From an uncultured Bacilli bacterium (GTDB lineage Bacteria > Bacillota_I > Bacilli_A > RF39 > UBA660), in NCBI GenBank assembly GCA_934101625.1, contig CAKORV010000001.1, positions 66,121-130,120 of the forward strand: DNA of 64,000 nt. The letters are read 5' to 3'. Below the pieces are notes generated by a model. It saw only the letters and a list, made by a program, of their open reading frames with translations. It searched no databases and was not told where the DNA came from. This document shows, one piece after another, positions 24,550 to 53,884 of the stretch (its first letter is position 1; the number at the start of each line of letters is the position of its first letter). A program made the translations under genes and the position numbers.

Positions 24550-25953
24550 CTATTTAGTAGGTATTAATATTTCTTGTCCAATTGATAATGTTGAACCAGA
24601 TAGATTATTAATATTTTTTAATTCATTAACTGTAACTCCATATGTATTTGCAATCTTCCAAAGTGAATCACCTTTTTTAACTTTATATGTGGTATAAGAT
24701 TCAGTACCAGGTATTTTCAATATTTGTCCTATTTGTAGTGTATTTGAAGATAGGTTATTTAAACTTTTTATATCATTTACACTAACACCATATTTATTAG
24801 CAATTGTATATAAATTATCGCCTTTTACCACTACATAATTAATTCCAGCTGAAGTTGTTGGTTCTTTTTCTTCAACTTTTGTATCAGATACAGGGATTAA
24901 TAATTTTTGTCCTACATATATAGTGTTACCTGTAAGTTTATTTGCGCTTTTTATTCTATCAACTGTGATTCCATAACTACTTGCTATTTTAGAAAGAGAA
25001 TCTCCTGCCTTTACAGTGTATTCTATTCCTTTTGGTTCTTCTTTTACATCTATTTCTATGTTTTCTGTTTTAGGTATTAGTAATTGCTGATTAATAGTTA
25101 ATGTTGTTCCTTTTAAGTTGTTAATACTCATTAGTGTATCTACAGTAGTATTGTATTTATTAGCAATTTTCCAAAGTGAATCACCAGATTTAACTGTATA
25201 AATTAAATAGTCTTCTACTGGTTTTTCTTCATCAAGTTTAACTTTTAAATTTTGTCCTACTGTAATTGTATTTGATTTTAAGTTATTTAGATTTTTTAAT
25301 TCTTCAACTGTTATACCAAATTTGTTAGCAATTTTCCATAATGAATCACCTTTTTGTACTGTATAATATGAGCCTTCAACAGGCGCAGTATATGGAAGAT
25401 TTTTATATTTAGTTATTGCTCTTACAACTGCTTCAGCATAATCTTTATAATTATTTTTTAATTGATTAACATCATCACCTTTTGAATCTAAAAAACCATA
25501 TTCAACAATTACTGCTTCTGTATCTGGTGTGTTTCTGTGTATAAAATAATAATCTTTTACTGGATTACTTGGAAGTCTTTGTTGATAATTTTTTCTTATG
25601 TTTTGACCTTCACTTTCTAATTCTTCTAATATTGTATTAGAAAACTTTGAATTATTCCTAAGAGCATAAATTACTTCAGCACCATCGCCACCTCCTGCAT
25701 TTATGTGATTACTAATAACGATTACATCTTTGCCTGTACCATATGCTTTCTTAATTCTATTTGTTCTATCAGTACTATCTATTGTTTCATCTGTAATTCT
25801 TGTCATTGTAACAGGAATACCTAATTCTCTTAATCTATCATACATGTATTTACTTATCAAAAGAGTAAGATCTTTCTCAATTATACCATTTCCACTAGCG
25901 CCTGGATCTGAACCTCCATGTCCAGCATCAATAACAATACCTTTTAATGACAT
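24550..25953 (-). CDS. N-acetylmuramoyl-L-alanine amidase (Amidase_3) with five C-terminal LysM repeats
   Basis: VIDAGHGGSDPGA amidase motif. Five repeats of the type Y-V-KGDSLWKIANKYG-TV-L---NNL. Confidence 0.9.
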   Translation of the reverse strand: MSLKGIVIDAGHGGSDPGASGNGIIEKDLTLLISKYMYDRLRELGIPVTMTRITDETIDSTDRTNRIKKAYGTGKDVIVISNHINAGGGDGAEVIYALRNNSKFSNTILEELESEGQNIRKNYQQRLPSNPVKDYYFIHRNTPDTEAVIVEYGFLDSKGDDVNQLKNNYKDYAEAVVRAITKYKNLPYTAPVEGSYYTVQKGDSLWKIANKFGITVEELKNLNNLKSNTITVGQNLKVKLDEEKPVEDYLIYTVKSGDSLWKIANKYNTTVDTLMSINNLKGTTLTINQQLLIPKTENIEIDVKEEPKGIEYTVKAGDSLSKIASSYGITVDRIKSANKLTGNTIYVGQKLLIPVSDTKVEEKEPTTSAGINYVVVKGDNLYTIANKYGVSVNDIKSLNNLSSNTLQIGQILKIPGTESYTTYKVKKGDSLWKIANTYGVTVNELKNINNLSGSTLSIGQEILIPTK

Positions 25954-32070: not shown

Positions 32071-32757
32071 ATGAATCAAGAAACAATTGGCAAAAAAATA
32101 AAAGAACTTAGAATAAAAAACAACTTAACTCAACAAGAACTAGCCAGTAAATTAAATGTAACATATCAAGCAGTAAGTAAATGGGAAAATGGTAAAAATT
32201 TACCAGACTTAGTAATACTAACTGAAATATGCAAAATATTTAATATAGATTTAAATGACTTAATAAGTGATAATAAAAAGAAATTCAATAAAAAATATTT
32301 ATACTTTATAATACCAATTCTATTAATAGTATTTGTATGTATAACACATTGTATATTAAAAGGAAAAAATGATTATAATTTTACTCCAATAACAACAACA
32401 TGTGAAGAATTTGAAATAACTGGAGTCGCAGCTTACAATAAAGAAAAAACATCTATTTATGTTTCTAATATAACTTATTGTGGTAAAGAAGAAAATCTTA
32501 ACTTTAAAGAAATAGAATGTACTTTATATGAAGAAATAGATAACAAAAAAATAAAAATAAATGAATGTAAGAGTGTTAATAACGAAACAAATTTAAAAGA
32601 TTACCTAAAAGATTTAACAATAAACATTGAACACTTTAGTAAAGAATGTAAAACTATGAAAGAAAATAATTTATATTTAGAGATAAATGGTAAAAATGAT
32701 GATGAAAAAATAATTACTTATAAAATACCTTTAAAACTAGATGAAAAATGTAACTAA
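32071..32757 (+). CDS. membrane-tethered XRE-family HTH regulator
   Basis: HTH IKELRIKNNLTQQELASKLNVTYQAVSKWENGKNLP, then one TM (YLYFIIPILLIVFVCITHCIL) and an extracytoplasmic domain. Confidence 0.7.
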   Translation: MNQETIGKKIKELRIKNNLTQQELASKLNVTYQAVSKWENGKNLPDLVILTEICKIFNIDLNDLISDNKKKFNKKYLYFIIPILLIVFVCITHCILKGKNDYNFTPITTTCEEFEITGVAAYNKEKTSIYVSNITYCGKEENLNFKEIECTLYEEIDNKKIKINECKSVNNETNLKDYLKDLTINIEHFSKECKTMKENNLYLEINGKNDDEKIITYKIPLKLDEKCN

Positions 32758-42405: not shown

Positions 42406-43257
42406 ATGATTAAAGGAAAACCATTTGTAAAATGGGCAGGAGGGAAAAGACAGATAATAGATAAATTAAAACAATATGTACCTGAAAATTTTGATACTTA
42501 TTATGAACCATTTGTAGGTGGTGGTGCATTACTTTTTGAACTTTCACCTAAAAAGGCTGTAATTAATGATTCGAATAAAGAACTTATGAATGTATATGAA
42601 TGCATTAAAGATGAGAGAAAGTTTGAATTAATGTGTAGAGAATTAAATCATCATGAAACTGAACATTCAGAAGAATACTATTATGAAATTAGAAACATTG
42701 ATAGAGATAAAAAGAGATTTAATAAATTAACAGATTATAAAAGAGCTGCGAGAACTATTTATTTAAATAAAGCATGTTTTAATGGGTTATACAGAGTTAA
42801 TAGTAAAAATGAATTTAATGTACCATTTGGTAAAAAAACTAAAGTAAATACTTATGAAGGACAAAATTTAGGTATTATATGTGGTTATTTAAATTATAAT
42901 GATATTAAGATATTATCAGTTGATTTTGAAGAGTCTGTAAAAGATGCTAAAAAAGGAGACTTTATTTATTTTGATCCACCATATGATTCTGATACATCTA
43001 CATTTAATAGTTATACTGAAGAAGGCTTTGGAAAAAATGAACAAAGAAGACTAGCTAAAGTTTTTAAAGAACTATCAGATAGAGGTTGTTATGTAATGCT
43101 TTCTAACCATAATACAATATTAGTAAATGAATTATATAAAGATTTTAATATTCATTTAATTGAAGCAAAAAGAAACATTAATTCAAATGGAAAGAAAAGA
43201 GGTAAAGTAGAAGAGGTTATTATTACAAACTATGAAAATAAAAAAGGTTTTGAGTAA
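42406..43257 (+). CDS. dam: Dam-type DNA adenine methyltransferase (D12 class N6-MTase)
   Basis: KWAGGKRQI, FVGGGALLFEL (AdoMet binding) and the DPPY catalytic motif. Confidence 0.9.
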   Translation: MIKGKPFVKWAGGKRQIIDKLKQYVPENFDTYYEPFVGGGALLFELSPKKAVINDSNKELMNVYECIKDERKFELMCRELNHHETEHSEEYYYEIRNIDRDKKRFNKLTDYKRAARTIYLNKACFNGLYRVNSKNEFNVPFGKKTKVNTYEGQNLGIICGYLNYNDIKILSVDFEESVKDAKKGDFIYFDPPYDSDTSTFNSYTEEGFGKNEQRRLAKVFKELSDRGCYVMLSNHNTILVNELYKDFNIHLIEAKRNINSNGKKRGKVEEVIITNYENKKGFE

Positions 43258-43681: not shown

Positions 43682-45286
43682 ATGATAATAAAAAAACCTT
43701 ATGCTTTTATGATAAAGCATTTTAGATTAATACATCTAATATTAGTAGTATTACTATCATTTCTAGCATATAAAACTAATGCTATATTTACATTCTTTAG
43801 TGATTATGCTAAAAATGGTTACTATTCATATACTAATAATTTAGTATCTTCATACATAAATCTATATATGTTTATTGGTATAATATTGATAATACTTGTA
43901 TCTAGTTTTATGTACTTACTAATGAGATGGAAAAAGAAAAGTAGAACCTTCTATATATCTTTAATAGGATATTACTTAGTATTATTCTTTGGACTATTAT
44001 TTTATTTTAACTTATTTAATACAATACTAAACAAAACACTAGATATAAAAACAGTAAGAGTATATAGAGATATAATTGCTTTATTATACTTTCCTCAATT
44101 CTTTTTCTTAATATATTCTATAATACGTGCGATTGGATTTGATATAAAGAAATTTGACTTTAAAAAAGATTTAGAAGACTTAGATATAAGTGAAGAAGAT
44201 GCTGAAGAAGTAGAAATAACATTTGGACAAAATGCATATAAATATAAAAGAAAAGCTAGAAGAACATTTAGAGAATTTAAATACTATGTATTAGAAAATA
44301 AATTTTTCTTTAGTATAATATGTGGAGGAGCATCTCTAGTATTAATATTAATGATATTTATAGGAATAAATAGAAGACAAAACTATAAAGAAAGTCAATT
44401 CTTTAATGTAAATGGTGTAGTATTTAAAGTAAAAGAAAGTTATTTATCTAGTATAGATTATAAAGGTAACTTAATAAATGAAGAAAAAAAATATGTAATA
44501 ATAAAAGTATCTATGGAAAATACTAATATAGGTAAAGTAAACTTAGATGCTAAGACATTACAATTAGTATTAGGAAGTGAATATTATTATCCAACATATT
44601 CTAAAAATGATTACTTTATAGATTTAGGAGAAGGATATAATAGAAATACATTATATTCTGGTGATATAAGAGAATATTTATTAATATATGAAGTACCATA
44701 TAATAGTAATTTTAAAGATCCTGTATTTAGAATGATAGGTAGTGTAAATGTAGTAAAAGGTGAAATACAGGCTAGTACAATGAATGTTAAATTAAAACCT
44801 AAAGAATATATTACAATATCTAAAAGTGAAGCATATTCTGTAGGAGAAGCAGTTGATTTAACTAATTCTACTTTAGGTAATAGTGAATTTATGATAAAAA
44901 GTTATCAAATAGGAGATCAATTTGAAGAAAACTATGACTATTGTCTAACTGAATGTTATAAAGGTAAAAAAATAATAGTACCTGATACATTAGGTAAATA
45001 TAGTAGAACATTAATTAAATTAGAAGTAGAAACTAGTATAGATGAAGATCTTTATATAAATAGATATATAACAAATAATTCTAACTTTATAAGTATATTT
45101 GGTAAAGTAATATATAAAGTAAATGGAATAGATACAATAGAAACATTTAAAGTAAAAGATTTAGGTAAAATAGATACTAAAAATGTATACTTAGAAATAA
45201 ATGATGAAATAAAAAATGCTACTCAAATAAAACTAATAATGAGTATAAGAGATAAAAAATATACTATAAATCTAAAAAACTCGTAA
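43682..45286 (+). CDS. polytopic membrane protein with large C-terminal extracytoplasmic domain, hypothetical
   Basis: Five to six TMs followed by about 300 aa of soluble domain. The upstream part of the track ORF overlaps a TATAAT box, so the later ATG was chosen. Confidence 0.4.
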   Translation: MIIKKPYAFMIKHFRLIHLILVVLLSFLAYKTNAIFTFFSDYAKNGYYSYTNNLVSSYINLYMFIGIILIILVSSFMYLLMRWKKKSRTFYISLIGYYLVLFFGLLFYFNLFNTILNKTLDIKTVRVYRDIIALLYFPQFFFLIYSIIRAIGFDIKKFDFKKDLEDLDISEEDAEEVEITFGQNAYKYKRKARRTFREFKYYVLENKFFFSIICGGASLVLILMIFIGINRRQNYKESQFFNVNGVVFKVKESYLSSIDYKGNLINEEKKYVIIKVSMENTNIGKVNLDAKTLQLVLGSEYYYPTYSKNDYFIDLGEGYNRNTLYSGDIREYLLIYEVPYNSNFKDPVFRMIGSVNVVKGEIQASTMNVKLKPKEYITISKSEAYSVGEAVDLTNSTLGNSEFMIKSYQIGDQFEENYDYCLTECYKGKKIIVPDTLGKYSRTLIKLEVETSIDEDLYINRYITNNSNFISIFGKVIYKVNGIDTIETFKVKDLGKIDTKNVYLEINDEIKNATQIKLIMSIRDKKYTINLKNS

Positions 45287-45338
45287 TTTTCTCTTTTCAA
45301 GTAACATATAATTTGATATAATGTTGTTACTTGGAAAT

Positions 45339-45413
45339 GGTTCCGTAGCCAAGAGGCTAAGGCATCGGACTGCAACTCCGCGATCGTCGGTTCGACTCCG
45401 ACCGGAACCTCCA
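45339..45413 (+). tRNA. tRNA-Cys: tRNA-Cys (anticodon GCA)
   Basis: Hand-folded cloverleaf. Acceptor GGTTCCG/CGGAACC, anticodon loop CTGCAAC, T-arm GTCGG-TTCGACT-CCGAC, U73 discriminator (a CysRS identity element), encoded CCA. Confidence 0.9.
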
Positions 45414-45503
45414 AATAGTAATGAAACCCTTTGTTTTAAGGGCTTTTTATTTATAATCTAAGTTTATGTATAGTTAGTGGTTGATTTTTGGACTGAAAAA
45501 GTA

Positions 45504-46683: not shown

Positions 46684-48495
46684 ATGAATAAAGAAAAGAA
46701 ATATATAATATTTGGTATAGTAATGATAGTAGTATTACTTATAGGTTTTACATATGCGTTTTATCAAAGTGAAATGAATAGTAATAAATCTAAAGTAACT
46801 GTAGATACAGATGATATGAGAATTATATTTACTAATGGAGATGCAATAGAAGCAAGTGATGTATATGCAGAAGATAATTTAGATATAGTTAAGTCTTTTA
46901 GTGTAGAGAATAAAACAAGTAAAGAATATAAATATAATATTGTATTTGAAGACTTAGTAAATACATTTAAGACAACTGGTTATTTAGTTTATAAGATAAC
47001 TAGTACAGATGGTGGATACAACATGACTGATTTCATAGACATACCTAAATCATTAACTGCAACTAATACAGTACTAGCATATAGTGTAACTATACCAGCA
47101 AAATCAATACAAAATTATTCAATAGAAATAAAATACATAAATAGTGAAACAGAAAATCAAGATGATGATCAAGGAGCAAAACTAAGTGGTAAATTATATA
47201 TAAGTAAGGGTACAATACAATCTTATAAATTGACAGACGCTATATTAAGAGATAACCCAACAATAGAAGAAAGAACAGACTTTAGTGTAACAAATGTAGC
47301 CAATACAACAGGAACAATATATAAAACAAATAAAACAGAAGATGGAAGTGATGTATATTATTATTCAGGGAATACCACTAATAACTGGGTAAAGTTTGGT
47401 AAAGAAACAGTACAAGAATGTACATATAATGGAGAACAAGTTCAATATGGAATTTATAATGATGAAACAAGTTATTATAAGGAAGTAAGAAAGGTTGCAT
47501 CAAGTGAAGAATGTGTTTCAACTAATGTTTGTTCAGATGACTCTTATGGACCAATAATTGGATTAACAGAAGAACAATGTACAAACAATAATGGTATTGC
47601 TGGTACTTGGACAACAGATAAGGCAACTGCTGGTAGTAAAGTAGAAAAGGATATATATTGGAGAATAATTCATACAAATGAAGATAAAAGTGTAAGACTA
47701 TTATATTCAGGATTTGATCCAGCAACTACAAAAGGGTATATAGGTGGCTCCGCATTTAATTTAAGTTATAATGATCCAATGTATGTAGGATATATGTATG
47801 GAACAAGTGGTTCTTTAGATAGTAATAGAACCAATACAAATGATAGCACTATAAAAACATTTATAGATAATTGGTATGAAGATACATTACTAACTAATTA
47901 TGATAAATACATAAGTAAAACTGCAATATATTGTAATGATAGAAGTGTTCCAAATAATAATTATTCTACATCAAGTAATTTTGATTATGGTGCTTGGACA
48001 AGATTAAGTAATTCTACACCGACATATAAATGTGGAGGAACTGGTACCGAAACAGATAATGATAATACTGGTGGTAGTACTAAATCAATGGATACTTCAA
48101 CAAATCCAGATATGTTTTCTTCAAGTGTTACAGGTACAGGAGGAAATGGACAATTAAAATATCCGATTGCAATGATGACAGCAGATGAACTTGCTTTCGC
48201 AGGTGGAAAAATGTGGACAACTTTAAGTAGTCCATATGCTTGGTATGTTGCAAATAGTGAAGGTAATTTGATAAGCAATACTTTCTGGTGGTCTTTGTCT
48301 CCTAGTGACTGGGCTGGCCCTCGTGCTCGCGTGTGGGCTGTCGATGGTTCTGACACTCCTGGCGGCTTGGGCGGCGGCTACGTTCTGCTTGACTATGGGG
48401 TGCGCCCTTCAGTTTCCCTTGATTCATGTGTCAAAGTAACTGGTACTGGAACATCAACAGATCCTTACGTAGTGGATGAAACAAGTTGTAGTTAA
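46684..48495 (+). CDS. surface/secreted protein with N-terminal signal anchor and lectin-like C-terminal domain carrying the anomalous patch
   Basis: TasA/SipW-type-looking signal (LLIGFTYAFYQSE). C-terminal motif ADELAFAGG...FWWSLSPS...RVWAVDG...YGVRPSVSL, as in DUF1566/DUF6273-like domains. AGGTGAT RBS at 46674-46680. Confidence 0.7.
   Translation: MNKEKKYIIFGIVMIVVLLIGFTYAFYQSEMNSNKSKVTVDTDDMRIIFTNGDAIEASDVYAEDNLDIVKSFSVENKTSKEYKYNIVFEDLVNTFKTTGYLVYKITSTDGGYNMTDFIDIPKSLTATNTVLAYSVTIPAKSIQNYSIEIKYINSETENQDDDQGAKLSGKLYISKGTIQSYKLTDAILRDNPTIEERTDFSVTNVANTTGTIYKTNKTEDGSDVYYYSGNTTNNWVKFGKETVQECTYNGEQVQYGIYNDETSYYKEVRKVASSEECVSTNVCSDDSYGPIIGLTEEQCTNNNGIAGTWTTDKATAGSKVEKDIYWRIIHTNEDKSVRLLYSGFDPATTKGYIGGSAFNLSYNDPMYVGYMYGTSGSLDSNRTNTNDSTIKTFIDNWYEDTLLTNYDKYISKTAIYCNDRSVPNNNYSTSSNFDYGAWTRLSNSTPTYKCGGTGTETDNDNTGGSTKSMDTSTNPDMFSSSVTGTGGNGQLKYPIAMMTADELAFAGGKMWTTLSSPYAWYVANSEGNLISNTFWWSLSPSDWAGPRARVWAVDGSDTPGGLGGGYVLLDYGVRPSVSLDSCVKVTGTGTSTDPYVVDETSCS
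48281..48432 (+). other. adenine-depleted, GC-rich in-frame patch (candidate DGR variable region)
   Basis: Hand count over 152 nt: A 11, C 41, G 49, T 51 (59% G+C). The 60 nt upstream have 20 A. 48311-48340 contains no A at all. The anomaly itself is certain; the confidence value refers to the DGR interpretation. Confidence 0.45.
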
Positions 48496-48504
48496 ATAAA
48501 ATAT

Positions 48505-48530
48505 AAAGAGTGAATTTGATTTCACTCTTT
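48505..48530. terminator. bidirectional terminator between convergent genes
   Basis: 10-bp stem AAAGAGTGAA / TTCACTCTTT with 6-nt loop, flanked by an A-rich run and a T-rich run. Confidence 0.8.
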
Positions 48531-50110
48531 TATTCTTCTATTAAATCTTTAACTTTAGACTTATAATCATTTAACTTATCTTCTAATTCTACATTCTTAT
48601 CTTTTAAATCTTCAATCTCTTCTTCATATTTAGAAATAGTATCATTTAATATACTTTGATTATTATTTAAGTCATTTAATTCATTATAACAACCACTTAA
48701 TTCTTCATCTCTATTTATCTGATTTAATTCTTGATAATATCTACTAGAATTATCTTTTAATTTATTTATATTTTCTTCATTACCTCTTACAACTATATAA
48801 GCTGTATATAAATTATTATAGTTATAAATCTCTTTATCTTTTAAATTATCTAACACTATATTAATAATCTTATTACTAGGATTAATTCTATTACTAAAGT
48901 CTATAAACTTATAATTACTTAAACTATATTCATTAATATTTAAAGTACTAAATTCATTATAATAAGTAGTATCTACAACTATCTTATCACTTAAACTATT
49001 ATCAACTACAAACTTAACATCAGTTCTATTAAAATAATAATCTTCTATAATATGATTGCCATAAGAACCAATTAATAAATTATCACTCATATCATATTCA
49101 TAACTCTTATTAACATACTCTAAATTAGTTTTAGGTTCTTTATCAACATATTTAGTATCAATTACTTCAGTAACACATAATCCAATACCAATACCTGTTA
49201 ATAATAATCCACTTATAAACATAATAAACATCTTTTTAAAACTAATTTTATGATTAAATAAGAAAGCACTAACAAGTAATATAATAAATCCATTAAGAAC
49301 TAAACCACCTATACCTACAAAAGTAAATCCAAAATATAGAATACCTTTAAATAATAAATATAACATAATAAATAAATATATAGCTAAGAATATAAAACTA
49401 AATAAGAAAGGTAAACTTATTAATACTAAGAAAAACTTTAATGTTAACATTAATATCTTACCTAAAGTCTTAAATACTGGAGAACTATTAGTTTCTTTAT
49501 AAACATAACTCTTAGGCTCTTCTCTAATAATAGTTTCTTCTTTATTACTATCTTCTTTAATACTTTCTTTTACTTCAAACTTATCTAAATAATTAGTCTT
49601 ATAAATATATAAGTATGAAAATATAAAGAAAGCCAAATATAAAATATTTATTAAGAATTCCCAAATAGTAGTTATAAATCTTAAACTAGGATAATCATAG
49701 AATATATTATCTGCTAAATTTATTAAATATTCAAATGGTAACCTAAGTGCTAACAATATCATAAAGATAACAAATAATTCAAATATTATTTTAAATCTTT
49801 CTCTACCTTTAATATTCTTAAACATAGTAACACTTTTATTCATTATATAAGTTATATCATCTATAAAAGAATTAATAGTATTTTTACTCTTCTTATTAAC
49901 ATCACTATAATTAATAGAATCATTAGTTAGATCATCTAAAGTAACATTAAATATCTTACAAAGAGTTAATAGTTTATCCATCTCTGGATAAGTTTGACCA
50001 CTTTCCCATTTGGAAACTGATTGCCTTGAGACATCTAATTTATCAGCAAGGGCTTCTTGACTTAGATTATTTTCTTTTCTAAGTTTTGTTAGTTTTTCAC
50101 TAAACTTCAT
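48530..50110 (-). CDS. membrane-embedded XRE-family HTH regulator with C-terminal coiled coil
   Basis: HTH LTKLRKENNLSQEALADKLDVSRQSVSKWESGQTYP, about 6 TMs, an extracytoplasmic region and a coiled-coil tail. Start MKFSEK after GAGGTG. Confidence 0.7.
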   Translation of the reverse strand: MKFSEKLTKLRKENNLSQEALADKLDVSRQSVSKWESGQTYPEMDKLLTLCKIFNVTLDDLTNDSINYSDVNKKSKNTINSFIDDITYIMNKSVTMFKNIKGRERFKIIFELFVIFMILLALRLPFEYLINLADNIFYDYPSLRFITTIWEFLINILYLAFFIFSYLYIYKTNYLDKFEVKESIKEDSNKEETIIREEPKSYVYKETNSSPVFKTLGKILMLTLKFFLVLISLPFLFSFIFLAIYLFIMLYLLFKGILYFGFTFVGIGGLVLNGFIILLVSAFLFNHKISFKKMFIMFISGLLLTGIGIGLCVTEVIDTKYVDKEPKTNLEYVNKSYEYDMSDNLLIGSYGNHIIEDYYFNRTDVKFVVDNSLSDKIVVDTTYYNEFSTLNINEYSLSNYKFIDFSNRINPSNKIINIVLDNLKDKEIYNYNNLYTAYIVVRGNEENINKLKDNSSRYYQELNQINRDEELSGCYNELNDLNNNQSILNDTISKYEEEIEDLKDKNVELEDKLNDYKSKVKDLIEE

Positions 50111-50244
50111 TTTCTTCACCTCGCATACATAATACAATAAAACCCAGTTGCATAAAACCAATATTAAGTTGTTTTTATGTTAATTCTTGGTTGCATCACT
50201 TATATTATATCAAATAAATTAATATTATTAAATAAGAGGTGCTT

Positions 50245-51298: not shown

Positions 51299-53884
51299 AT
51301 GGAAAACAATAATGAACAAATAGACTTAAAAGACATCAAACTATATAAATCAAAAAAGTTAATAAATACTTTAAAAAAATTAACAGATGAACAAATAGAT
51401 ATTTTAGTAGATTCAAGTGTAATAGAATTTATTTCAAGTTTAGGTAACAATTCTATTAATTCAATTTTTAGAAATTCAAGTGTTACTATGCAAAATAAAT
51501 TGTGGACTAATGATAAAATCCAAAGAATATTAATTTTAGGAACTTTAAACTTAAACAAATCTGTATGTACTGAACATACAATAAGGAATCTTCAAAATTT
51601 AAATAAAGTTACAAAATCTCAAAGTATAAAAGAACAACTATACAATAATAAATACTTTATATATGTAGTCATTAATAGTAGTAAAATTGAAAATAGATTT
51701 TTTAATATATATGATTTAAGAAAAACCTTTGATGGAATAATGAAAAGTGACGAATTTAACTTATTACCAAGTGATAAACAATTAAAAATAGTAGAAAGGT
51801 TAAATGCTTATACTAAAGATATACTTCTACCAAATGATTTCAGGAAAAGATTTAGTAATATAGAAAGAATCTTATATGATAGAGATAGAACTAAAATTGA
51901 TAAAAATATAATTGAACAATTGAATTTTGAAGAGTTATTATTTCTAGATTATATTAATTATAGTACAGAAAATAATAAAGCCTTAAGAAAATATATATTA
52001 GATAGTGTAGGATTAAATGGTAAATCATTTGAAGAATTTTTTACCGAAATAAAACATAAAAATAAATTAATTGTAGAAAAAATAGAAAAACAATTTCATC
52101 ATTCATTTTATTGTCCTATTAGTTTAGAAGAAAAAATATATCATATTTTACTAAAAGAAAATCAAAGTGATTTAATTAAAGAAAAACTTTTAAAATATTT
52201 AATACGCCAAATATTAAATGATAGTACTGTTAATCCAGAGATGATGTATAATACATTAAAAAGAAATCTAAATAATGATTTATTAAGTTATAAAGATATA
52301 AAAAGTCTAATTAACAATTATGATGCAGAAACAAAGGAATTAAAGTTAATATTTTATCTGAAATTTAATATTGCTTTATCAAATGCTGAATATCTTTATG
52401 GTATAACAGAAGAACAATTATCCAAAGTAAATGTTAAACACATAAATAAACTAAAGAAATTTTTAGAAGATAAAACTCAAGATGAATTATCCTTAACTTA
52501 TGGTTTATCTATTAAAATGTACTTTATATTTGGTTATGAAAGAAGTTTAGAAATATTAAGCGGAAAATACGGAGAATATAATAGAAAATTTTTAGATAAT
52601 GTTGCAAAAACAGATGTAACAAAAATACAAATGAAATCTGAAGGAAATAAATATTTACCTAATATAGATAAAAGATTTATTAATTTTATGTTTGAATCAC
52701 CTAAGAATAATCATTTTATCAATATGCTTAATGACAAAAATTCTGAATTATATAAAATGTGGTATTATTTATATAATAATTATGATGAAATATTAGAAAA
52801 AAGTCATAATGTAATTACCTTAAAGAAAGTAAATTCAATATTAGTAACAGAAAAATATAATGTAGATAGGAATATAATTACTCCAGCTAACTATTTATTG
52901 AATGATAATAGTTTTCTAGAAAACATTATATTAGGAAACAAAACCCCTTATACTAATAATGATGTATTAAAAAAGATAGTGGAAATATATTCACAAATGA
53001 AGAAAAGAGTTGAATCAAGTATTCCATATGTAAAAGGAGTTTCAAGAGATGGCTATACATATGAAATGATGAAGTTTGATGATCCACAAGTCTTTGAATT
53101 AGGTTATAAAGCCAACTGTTGTATAAGAACACTAGACATAGCGCACAACCATTTATTACATGCAACACTTTGTAGAAATGGTAGAATATTAATTATATAT
53201 GATAAATTAGGAGATGTAACTGCATTTTCTCCATTAAAAAGAAATGGTAATGTTTTAATAGCGAATAGTATTGAATGTGTGGATAAAGATCTAAATGTCA
53301 AAGGTCATTCAATAGCGAATGCATTTAAAGAAGGAATAGAAAAAATAGTGGAAATTACTAAACGAAGTAATGAGCCAATCAACCTGGTCTGTATTGGTAA
53401 TGAATCACACTTAAAACCAAAAACAACTCATTTTCCAAAAAAATACCCAACTCCAACTATATTTGAAAAAAATGATAAAATATATGGTGGGACAGATAAT
53501 TATCATAAAACTTTAGATATTGTATATAAAGATGAAAACTTTGACCTTGAAAATATTGAGTCAAAAAATCCTAACATTTCATATATGGATCCTAGAGATG
53601 AAATAAAATTTGGTGATTTTTCCACAAGAAGATATGAAAACAATAATGAAAATATAATTAATATAATAAACTCTATAAATTATTCAATTAATCCTACAAA
53701 CTACACACCAATAAGTATATATTCTATAAAAAAAGTTTATTATTCTAAAGATTGGTATATAGCTGAAACTTACCAAGGATTAAAAGGTGAATGCTTAGAA
53801 AATGATTACAGAGCTAAAGAAGAATTTAATGATTATATGAAAATGTTAAATAAAGATGAACAACAAAAAACATTAAAAAAGTAA
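51299..53884 (+). CDS. large (861 aa) cytoplasmic protein of unknown function
   Basis: Long uninterrupted ORF with a strong promoter and RBS. No TM or signal peptide. Cys/His cluster YKANCCIRTLDIAHNHLLHATLCRNG near residue 600. Confidence 0.6.
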   Translation: MENNNEQIDLKDIKLYKSKKLINTLKKLTDEQIDILVDSSVIEFISSLGNNSINSIFRNSSVTMQNKLWTNDKIQRILILGTLNLNKSVCTEHTIRNLQNLNKVTKSQSIKEQLYNNKYFIYVVINSSKIENRFFNIYDLRKTFDGIMKSDEFNLLPSDKQLKIVERLNAYTKDILLPNDFRKRFSNIERILYDRDRTKIDKNIIEQLNFEELLFLDYINYSTENNKALRKYILDSVGLNGKSFEEFFTEIKHKNKLIVEKIEKQFHHSFYCPISLEEKIYHILLKENQSDLIKEKLLKYLIRQILNDSTVNPEMMYNTLKRNLNNDLLSYKDIKSLINNYDAETKELKLIFYLKFNIALSNAEYLYGITEEQLSKVNVKHINKLKKFLEDKTQDELSLTYGLSIKMYFIFGYERSLEILSGKYGEYNRKFLDNVAKTDVTKIQMKSEGNKYLPNIDKRFINFMFESPKNNHFINMLNDKNSELYKMWYYLYNNYDEILEKSHNVITLKKVNSILVTEKYNVDRNIITPANYLLNDNSFLENIILGNKTPYTNNDVLKKIVEIYSQMKKRVESSIPYVKGVSRDGYTYEMMKFDDPQVFELGYKANCCIRTLDIAHNHLLHATLCRNGRILIIYDKLGDVTAFSPLKRNGNVLIANSIECVDKDLNVKGHSIANAFKEGIEKIVEITKRSNEPINLVCIGNESHLKPKTTHFPKKYPTPTIFEKNDKIYGGTDNYHKTLDIVYKDENFDLENIESKNPNISYMDPRDEIKFGDFSTRRYENNNENIINIINSINYSINPTNYTPISIYSIKKVYYSKDWYIAETYQGLKGECLENDYRAKEEFNDYMKMLNKDEQQKTLKK

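Follow-up and report, generated by a model that had tools for sequence, protein, structure and literature searches.

The window analysed here, that is, the whole 64-kb stretch of DNA from an uncultured gut bacterium of the Bacilli, contains a short adenine-starved patch (positions 48281-48432, forward strand) at the 3' end of a gene (46684-48495) encoding a protein of 603 residues. The patch is very probably the variable region (VR) of a target of a diversity-generating retroelement (DGR), rewritten from a template repeat (TR) located elsewhere. An earlier note, made from the sequence alone, had proposed such a target, with both the TR and the reverse transcriptase (RT) lying outside the window. 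What stands of this proposal is the VR itself, as evidenced by a TR-like repeat present in related genomes, by mismatches that are specific to the adenines of this repeat (25/33 A sites versus 1/85 other sites) and by the hypervariability of the tract. In contrast, no RT was found in the sequence searched, and the TR was seen only in related strains.

The patch, taken within the limits set by the earlier note, is the compositional extreme of the window. Its 152 nucleotides (nt) comprise 11 A, 41 C, 49 G and 51 T, corresponding to 7% A and 59% G+C, and these counts proved exact on recount. The window as a whole has 24% G+C and 40% A, and a 152-nt sliding scan of all 64 kb places both the minimum of A and the maximum of GC at start position 48281. 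The depletion is limited to A, as the content of T is normal. The interval 48311-48340 lacks A altogether, and an A-free run of 35 nt, longer than any other in the window, starts at position 48309. Codons devoid of A account for 78% of the patch; the corresponding figures are 16% for the remainder of the gene and 21% for a set of 15 other genes. Some of those used in the scaffold of the patch (GGC, CGC, CTG, GTC and TCC) occur at frequencies of only 0.1-1.6 per 1000 codons elsewhere. The reading frame is intact and yields the peptide reported earlier, and the motif GGGGTGCGCCC is found only once in the window, at 48397-48407. On all these points (base counts, A-free interval, normal T, rare scaffold codons, open frame and GC-rich motif), the description given in the earlier note was accurate. 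The composition anomaly is real and lies far beyond the background of the window.

The earlier reading had also reported that the window hosts neither a TR nor an RT, and this holds. Searches for direct and inverted repeats, sensitive blastn and an adenine-tolerant sliding comparison revealed no template-like copy within the 64 kb, and domain searches revealed no RT. A template was predicted by setting every variable codon to AAY, and the translated peptide was used as a query against protein collections. A single matching cluster was retrieved (P0121 and P0122, 72 residues), encoded on two short contigs from different studies, assembled by SPAdes (L014) and MEGAHIT (L015), respectively. The TR copy carried by these contigs reads GTCTTTGTCTCCT AAT GAC TGG AAT GGC TCT AAT GCT AAC GTG TGG AAT GTC AAT GGT TCT GAC AAT CCT GGC AAC TTG AAC AAC AAC AAC GTT CAG AAT GAC AAT GGGGTGCGCCCT. 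It is 118 nt in length, with 28% A and 45% GC (33 A; non-A positions include 32 T, 27 G and 26 C). The copy is preceded by unrelated non-coding DNA and followed by a diverged target-like tail. In L015, the 3' end of a target gene featuring a diversified VR, a 133-nt hairpin-rich spacer and the A-rich TR copy follow one another in this order. Because two assemblers and two studies share the junctions, these units are unlikely to be assembly artefacts.

The TR unit is located approximately 115-135 nt downstream of a paralogue of 515 residues, and the order 515-residue paralogue, TR unit, tgt is syntenic in L011/L016/L017 and in L021. Four alleles of the unit were distinguished, at L011:6522-6640 (also at L016:11664 and L017:5568), L021:2281-2398, L014:61-178 and L015:321-438. 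The L014 allele is pristine, and the L015 allele differs by one A>G change. The L021 allele exhibits three changes at A sites, three at non-A sites and a 1-nt deletion; the deletion frameshifts the pseudo-tail, and the TR unit is therefore non-coding. The neighbours of the unit are tgt, yceD-rpmF and ftsW, with an IS256 fragment in L014 and L015. Two adjacent genes were considered as RT candidates and rejected: the gene converging on the TR in L014 and L015 is the IS256 transposase fragment, and the open reading frame (ORF) of 371 residues that follows the unit in L011 is tgt.

The VR proper, as delimited by alignment to the TR (AGGTCTTTGTCTCCT...GGGGTGCGCCCT), spans positions 48289-48408 on the forward strand and encodes residues 536-575 of the 603. 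Over the 118-nt core (48291-48408), the window VR differs from the L014 TR at 25 of the 33 A sites and at one of the 85 non-A sites, a TCT>CCT change (Fisher p=1.3e-17). A near-copy mismatching almost only at its own adenines, of the kind envisaged by the earlier note, exists in related genomes. At the 33 positions occupied by A in the TR, the window VR has G in 15 cases, C in 6 and T in 4, and A is kept in 8. Two other VRs behave similarly: that of L011 differs from the TR at 23/33 A and 0/85 non-A sites, and that of L012 at 19/33 A and 1/85 non-A sites. When 11 distinct copies are pooled (8 VRs and three TR alleles, the reference included), changes involve 195 of 363 A sites versus 26 of 935 non-A sites. 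In the pooled set, the bases found in place of A are G (113), T (60) and C (22); with all three in use, the pattern is not that of a deaminase. The variable codons of the TR are AAT, AAC, GAC and CAG, and the VR is in frame at the 3' end of a coding target. Mismatches between VR and TR that fall almost exclusively at adenines are what defines DGR mutagenic retrohoming at the sequence level, and the alignments point to such a process at this locus.

The 3' boundary of the templated tract is marked by the GC-rich core GGGGTGCGCCCT (48397-48408, forward strand), which is identical in VR and TR and unique in the window. With the exception of L013, every VR copy and every TR allele carries the core unchanged. 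In the following 21 nt (48409-48429, forward strand), the VR (TCAGTTTCCCTTGATTCATGT) and the TR (GCAATTTCTCTATCATCATGT) differ at 7 positions, including non-A sites. The earlier note had postulated a GC-rich initiation of mutagenic homing (IMH) element, and GGGGTGCGCCCT fits this role, being the last block common to VR and TR, with divergence setting in right after it. In the phage BPP-1, according to what Doulatov et al. 2004 reportedly described, a block made only of G and C is common to VR and TR and is followed by approximately 21 nt that differ (IMH versus IMH*). The arrangement at 48397-48429 matches the IMH/IMH* pair and, by analogy, may have a role in directionality.

The flank of the VR varies among close relatives. 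In the orthologous locus L002 (4650-4700), the 3' flank of the VR (CCT GTA ATT TCC) is closer to the TR flank (CCT GCA ATT TCT) than to that of the window (CCT TCA GTT TCC, within 48409-48432), and several codons of the C-terminal tail also differ from those of the window. These differences hint at a 3' boundary shaped by recombination or by read-through conversion.

Orthologous loci encoding proteins with 98% (L002), 88-89% (L003 to L005) and 67% (L007) amino acid identity were compared. All are embedded in low-GC chromosomal contexts, and several come from Hadza gut samples. An invariant A-free scaffold (GTCTTTGTCTCCT, GTGTGG, GTC, GGTTCT, CCTG, TTG, GTTC and GGGGTGCGCCCT) is conserved in all orthologues, including the most distant one. 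The scaffold is interrupted by NNY codons, the first two positions of which vary freely between orthologues (98%, 88% and 67% identity). A patch that is hypervariable among orthologues is what the earlier note had anticipated. In an alignment of 60 protein sequences, the most variable segment of 35 residues corresponds to residues 538-572, with a mean entropy of 2.62 bits versus 1.19 bits elsewhere. High-entropy columns correspond to A-containing TR codons, and the conserved scaffold corresponds to A-free TR codons. The target genes of the window and of L007 have diverged by approximately 24% at the nucleotide level, while VR scaffolds differ among copies at only 0-7 of the 85 non-A positions. 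As the scaffolds are far more conserved than the genes that carry them, re-templating must have occurred after gene divergence. Since re-templating continued after the genes had diverged, diversification appears to be evolutionarily recent; the claim concerns past re-templating rather than present activity in this strain.

Multiple targets are dispersed in the genomes of this lineage. Scans of genome and metagenome contigs with scaffold patterns starting with TGGTCTTTGTCTCCT identified no TR but only further VRs, in L011 and L012 (metagenome-assembled genome CAKOLN01, a GTDB representative, Hadza) and in L013 (a JGI metagenome contig). These scans, being anchored to TGG, are unable to match the TR, which has AGG: the base preceding GGTC is A in the TR and T in all VRs. 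At least three VRs that fit one TR are found in a single genome (CAKOLN01 and the Hadza contig of 77 kb).

The family paralogues in L016, L018-L020 and L007 are located next to core genes, including gyrBA, rpsD-ezrA-ftsK, rpsL-rpsG-fusA-tuf, ftsAZ and tgt. One 77-kb contig carries at least three paralogues, and a conserved ORF of 140-150 residues, showing no family match, lies 5' of several of them.

The following scheme would account for the patch. A non-coding TR, located elsewhere in the chromosome, would be transcribed, and the TR RNA would be copied into cDNA by a DGR RT that misincorporates nucleotides opposite template adenines. Replacement by this cDNA would then affect the homologous 3'-terminal tract in the target gene and in several paralogues that encode surface proteins, the GC-rich GGGGTGCGCCCT element setting the 3' limit of the replaced tract. 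Because the invariant scaffold codons of the TR must be A-free, they would be made exclusively of T, G and C, and codons of this type are rare in a genome with 24% GC. Because most TR adenines would be rewritten, mainly to G, the VR would end up A-starved and GC-rich, with a normal content of T. The RT, its accessory protein and a TR unit are presumably present in the genome from which the window derives, and the scheme implies that the system is, or recently was, active.

Several observations weigh against this interpretation. None of the window ORFs tested carries an RT domain (RVT_1), and none is present in the called-gene annotation of the matching contig. The window likewise yielded no Avd-like protein, and neither RT nor Avd-like proteins were found in the 10 kb that follow it on its 3' side, in the 10 kb on either side of the TR unit (L016), or in the other related and paralogue loci examined, which make up a fraction of any one genome. 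Small ORFs located beside the targets and the TR unit have no match in NCBIfam, PHROG or Pfam; remote homology to Avd is possible. The TR is known from related strains (L014 and L015), not from the assembly of the window itself. Moreover, the unit is polymorphic: the allele shared by L011, L016 and L017 carries 12 A-site and 2 non-A changes, all in its 3' 60%. In the genomes of L011 and L021, VRs agree with the pristine TR allele better than with the local unit. The adenine-biased L011 allele could result from self-homing of mutagenised cDNA into the TR, or the unit could be a pseudo-target. The exact 603-residue protein (P0166) is encoded by 7 contigs with an identical VR allele, which gives no hint of rapid ongoing diversification. 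Within clusters at 90% identity, VR columns are approximately 3-fold enriched among variable columns, but the variation is modest and piecemeal. The strains available differ by 1-3% in the flanks, which left a test of recent activity without power. As the enzymatic half of the system was not located, the locus is not yet classed as a complete DGR.

Part of this evidence would also fit a fossil DGR, in which the patch was written in the past and the RT has since been lost, leaving a frozen VR that changes only by point mutation and recombination and a TR unit that decays. In line with this view, no RT is found in any of the lineage sequence examined, and the TR unit has accumulated non-A substitutions in L021, together with the deletion that shifts the frame, while the L011 unit carries 14 changes. 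The VRs of the window and of its 98% orthologue L002 are one nucleotide apart, and the VR allele shared by 7 contigs and the modest variation within the 90% clusters may be read in the same way. We lean against this explanation, while regarding it as possible. In two strains the TR is still pristine, 32-33 of its 33 adenines being retained, and VR scaffolds are far better kept than the host genes, pointing to evolutionarily recent re-templating. In addition, the bias of the L011 changes towards adenines (12 A versus 2 non-A) requires an RT that was active at that time, and the negative RT result covers only a fraction of any one genome. It is also conceivable, though doubtful, that the unit beside the 515-residue paralogue is not the template but a 5'-truncated recipient of cDNA, the master TR (equal to the pristine allele) lying next to an RT elsewhere. 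The unit bears a target-like C-terminal tail and has no RT within 10 kb, and in L011 it resembles a partly diversified VR, given the 12 A-site changes clustered in the 3' 60%. The fit of the L011 and L021 VRs to the pristine sequence is consistent with a master copy of this kind, and the TGG-anchored genome-wide scans are blind to other TR copies, which would read AGG. Yet a recipient of mutagenic homing would not have kept 32-33 of the 33 adenines, as L014 and L015 do, when approximately 54% of A sites are substituted on average, and the unit is favoured as the TR for this reason. Moreover, the unit begins at the point where VR/TR homology starts, non-coding DNA lies ahead of it, and its tail tolerates a frameshift.

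The earlier note had listed two further explanations, a mosaic patch recombined in from a high-GC homologue and an assembly chimera, and both are rejected. A local GC content of 59% within a 24% GC genome is what an imported segment might show, but A alone is depleted, T being normal, and the same A-free scaffold, interleaved with variable codons, is shared by orthologues and paralogues of many AT-rich genomes. Furthermore, the donor-like copy is A-rich (28% A, 45% GC) and native to the same AT-rich lineage, which makes an import extremely improbable. A chimera or a sequencing artefact would explain the abrupt change in composition, and nothing else; it is hardly credible, as the exact 603-residue protein is found on 7 independently assembled contigs (NCBI and ENA), the frame is intact and orthologues from other studies feature the same architecture. 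The interpretation of the patch as the VR of a DGR target is thus retained.

Whether the presumed DGR could be phage-borne was also considered, and this origin finds no support. Pattern scans for the TR and the VR (part of which were TGG-anchored) and a protein-family scan gave no match in viral collections (IMG/VR). Nor was any match obtained when the TR unit was compared to phages and plasmids by blastn, or the variable domain to phages by tblastn.

The target gene (46684-48495, forward strand) encodes a protein in which an N-terminal membrane anchor, one or more beta-sandwich domains and the C-terminal variable domain follow one another, as deduced from the ORF, its translation and AlphaFold modelling. 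The hydrophobic helix at residues 4-31 (KKYIIFGIVMIVVLLIGFTYAFY; 46693-46776, forward strand), which is also a helix in the model, is probably a signal anchor, and the remainder of the protein would be extracellular and exposed at the surface. In the AlphaFold model of the full-length protein (predicted local distance difference test, pLDDT, 79.6), the beta-sandwich domain(s) precede a C-terminal domain of mixed alpha/beta type. Over 5,800 homologues are present in databases; nearly all are unnamed and originate from gut metagenomes assembled in ENA. Shorter versions, 177-178 residues in length (P0124-P0137, in the cluster of P0002), consist of the N-terminal anchor and the first beta-sandwich only, and are encoded on numerous long contigs, of up to 181 kb. 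Truncation or a frameshift may have produced these alleles, or they may belong to a short paralogue of their own.

Searches of Pfam, NCBIfam and PHROG with the 603-residue protein gave no match, and the DUF6273 profile (PF19789) does not match the window protein even at E<=10. Among 60 homologues, 7 match DUF6273 at E<=0.1 (best 2.2e-4), and a precomputed PF19789 annotation is available for some of the more distant homologues. The window protein may be considered, at best, a remote relative of DUF6273. In phage DGR targets, DUF6273 has been described as a C-type-lectin-like domain with the VR at its C-terminus (PMC10743442, PMC11792537). The C-terminal 299 residues were modelled separately with a pLDDT of 86. 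A Foldseek comparison of this model to the PDB gave no significant match (best E=0.46), so that a C-type-lectin fold lacks significant support, and none was obtained with a profile searched against PDB sequences. Of the 13 Foldseek matches listed, all weak, the majority are C-type-lectin-like domains (CTLDs) or related bacterial folds, and they include 4eps, the C-terminal domain of Legionella Lcl (8q4e), langerin, the CTLDs of MR and DEC205, LOX-1 and a snaclec. In the search performed with the full-length protein, matches were dominated by the N-terminal beta-sandwich and were uninformative. Altogether, the model is only suggestive of a C-type-lectin-like fold. The lectin-like domain of DUF1566/DUF6273 type assigned by the earlier note draws some weak support from the 7 homologues and from the CTLD-type Foldseek list; in contrast, the window protein itself lacks a DUF6273 match, and the best Foldseek E value is 0.46.

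Family members with a clear DUF6273 annotation (P0104 and P0168-P0178) carry a conserved sequence rich in A-containing codons in place of the VR (SKWDGTKANVWIVDTNGKLDENGNVSTSYAVRP). These members look undiversified, and DGR targeting is not universal among the paralogues.

The features described above may be compared with those of known DGRs. In the prototype, the DGR carried by phage BPP-1 from Bordetella (mtd VR, TR, brt and avd), the VR similarly corresponds to the final 120-130 nt or so of the variable domain, where the target gene has its 3' end. In the TR, which is a near-copy, only adenines are mismatched, AAY codons mark the diversified sites, and the common G/C block is followed by approximately 21 differing nt. 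In contrast to BPP-1, the system described here is chromosomal and cellular rather than phage-borne, and the target is a membrane-anchored protein of 603 residues instead of the tip of a tail fibre. The TR, moreover, has another paralogue as its neighbour, neither an RT nor avd was found within 10 kb of it, and several targets are dispersed. One TR serving multiple scattered paralogous targets of surface or lipoprotein type is also a feature of the TvpA-type DGR of Treponema denticola and of the Legionella and cyanobacterial DGRs. In these systems, however, RT, TR and at least one target are associated in a cassette, whereas no RT was located here, and the host is an AT-rich uncultured gut Bacilli. 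A third term of comparison is provided by the DGR targets with a DUF6273 domain in phages of gut Firmicutes (Faecalibacterium prophages; 'tentaclins'), in which the VR is at the C-terminus of DUF6273, a family matched by distant members of the family analysed here. Unlike them, the window protein falls below significance for DUF6273, and neither protein searches nor TR/VR DNA patterns revealed any similarity to phage records or IMG/VR contigs. The closest analogues are thus cellular DGRs with several remote targets (Treponema, Legionella and cyanobacteria), together with the DUF6273 targets of gut Firmicutes phages. Remote DGR targets have been discussed previously (PMC4891356, PMC7517822). 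Judged by its sequence features, namely the A-specific mismatches, the 3' position, the AAY codons and the IMH-like boundary, the system appears to be of a known kind in a little-studied host. Its unusual features are a TR located at least 10 kb from any RT, many dispersed targets beside core genes and an uncultured gut Bacilli host with 24% GC.

The rest of the window is ordinary chromosome, with a cell-envelope glycan cluster, pyruvate:ferredoxin oxidoreductase (PFOR), P-type ATPases, a Dam methylase, ABC transporters and helix-turn-helix (HTH) regulators. Immediately downstream of the target gene, a hairpin (AAAGAGTGAA-N6-TTCACTCTTT) followed by a T run was read from the sequence at 48505-48531. 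It is likely a bidirectional terminator, separating the target gene from an HTH gene that converges on it (48530-50161, reverse strand). This HTH gene and its paralogue at 32071-32757 (forward strand) account for the inverted repeat I1 (32093-32220 and 49970-50097; 128 nt, 70%), which corresponds to the N-terminal HTH_3 domains of the two regulators. The other GC-rich spot of the window (45277-45496, 43% GC) was evaluated as a TR and rejected, since it corresponds to tRNA-Cys (GCA; 45339-45413, forward strand), the sole tRNA of the window. A Dam-family N6-adenine DNA methyltransferase (TIGR00571, E=2e-84) is encoded at 42406-43257 (forward strand), 3.4 kb 5' of the target gene. In L004 and L005 it is truncated or split, and it probably has no connection with the adenine-specific mutagenesis. 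An ORF of 861 residues without family match (51299-53884, forward strand) lies between the HTH gene and a MarR gene. This ORF is missing from the orthologous loci L002 to L005 and is therefore a strain-variable insertion. The direct-repeat families D1 and D2 originate from an N-acetylmuramoyl-L-alanine amidase gene (24550-25953, reverse strand), the product of which contains five LysM repeats.

As explicitly stated by Roux et al. 2021 (PMC8144416), large cassette-based surveys miss remote DGR targets. The present case indicates that an anomaly of pure composition, namely A starvation with normal T in an AT-rich genome, is able to flag a target of this type. If the RT is truly unlinked or absent, the lineage would provide a useful natural case of persistence or decay of DGR templates and targets. 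In a more specific scenario, which we consider speculative and improbable, a lone 118-nt TR set among housekeeping genes and uncoupled from any RT would serve many dispersed core-genome genes for surface proteins. The RT would be supplied by a distant locus or a mobile element, and the TR would sometimes be overwritten by its own mutagenised cDNA; if true, such overwriting would be a natural route for DGR burn-out. For the family as a whole, the data point to a large, unannotated set of membrane-anchored proteins in uncultured human-gut Bacilli, the ligand-binding tips of which would be diversified, now or formerly, from a single template.

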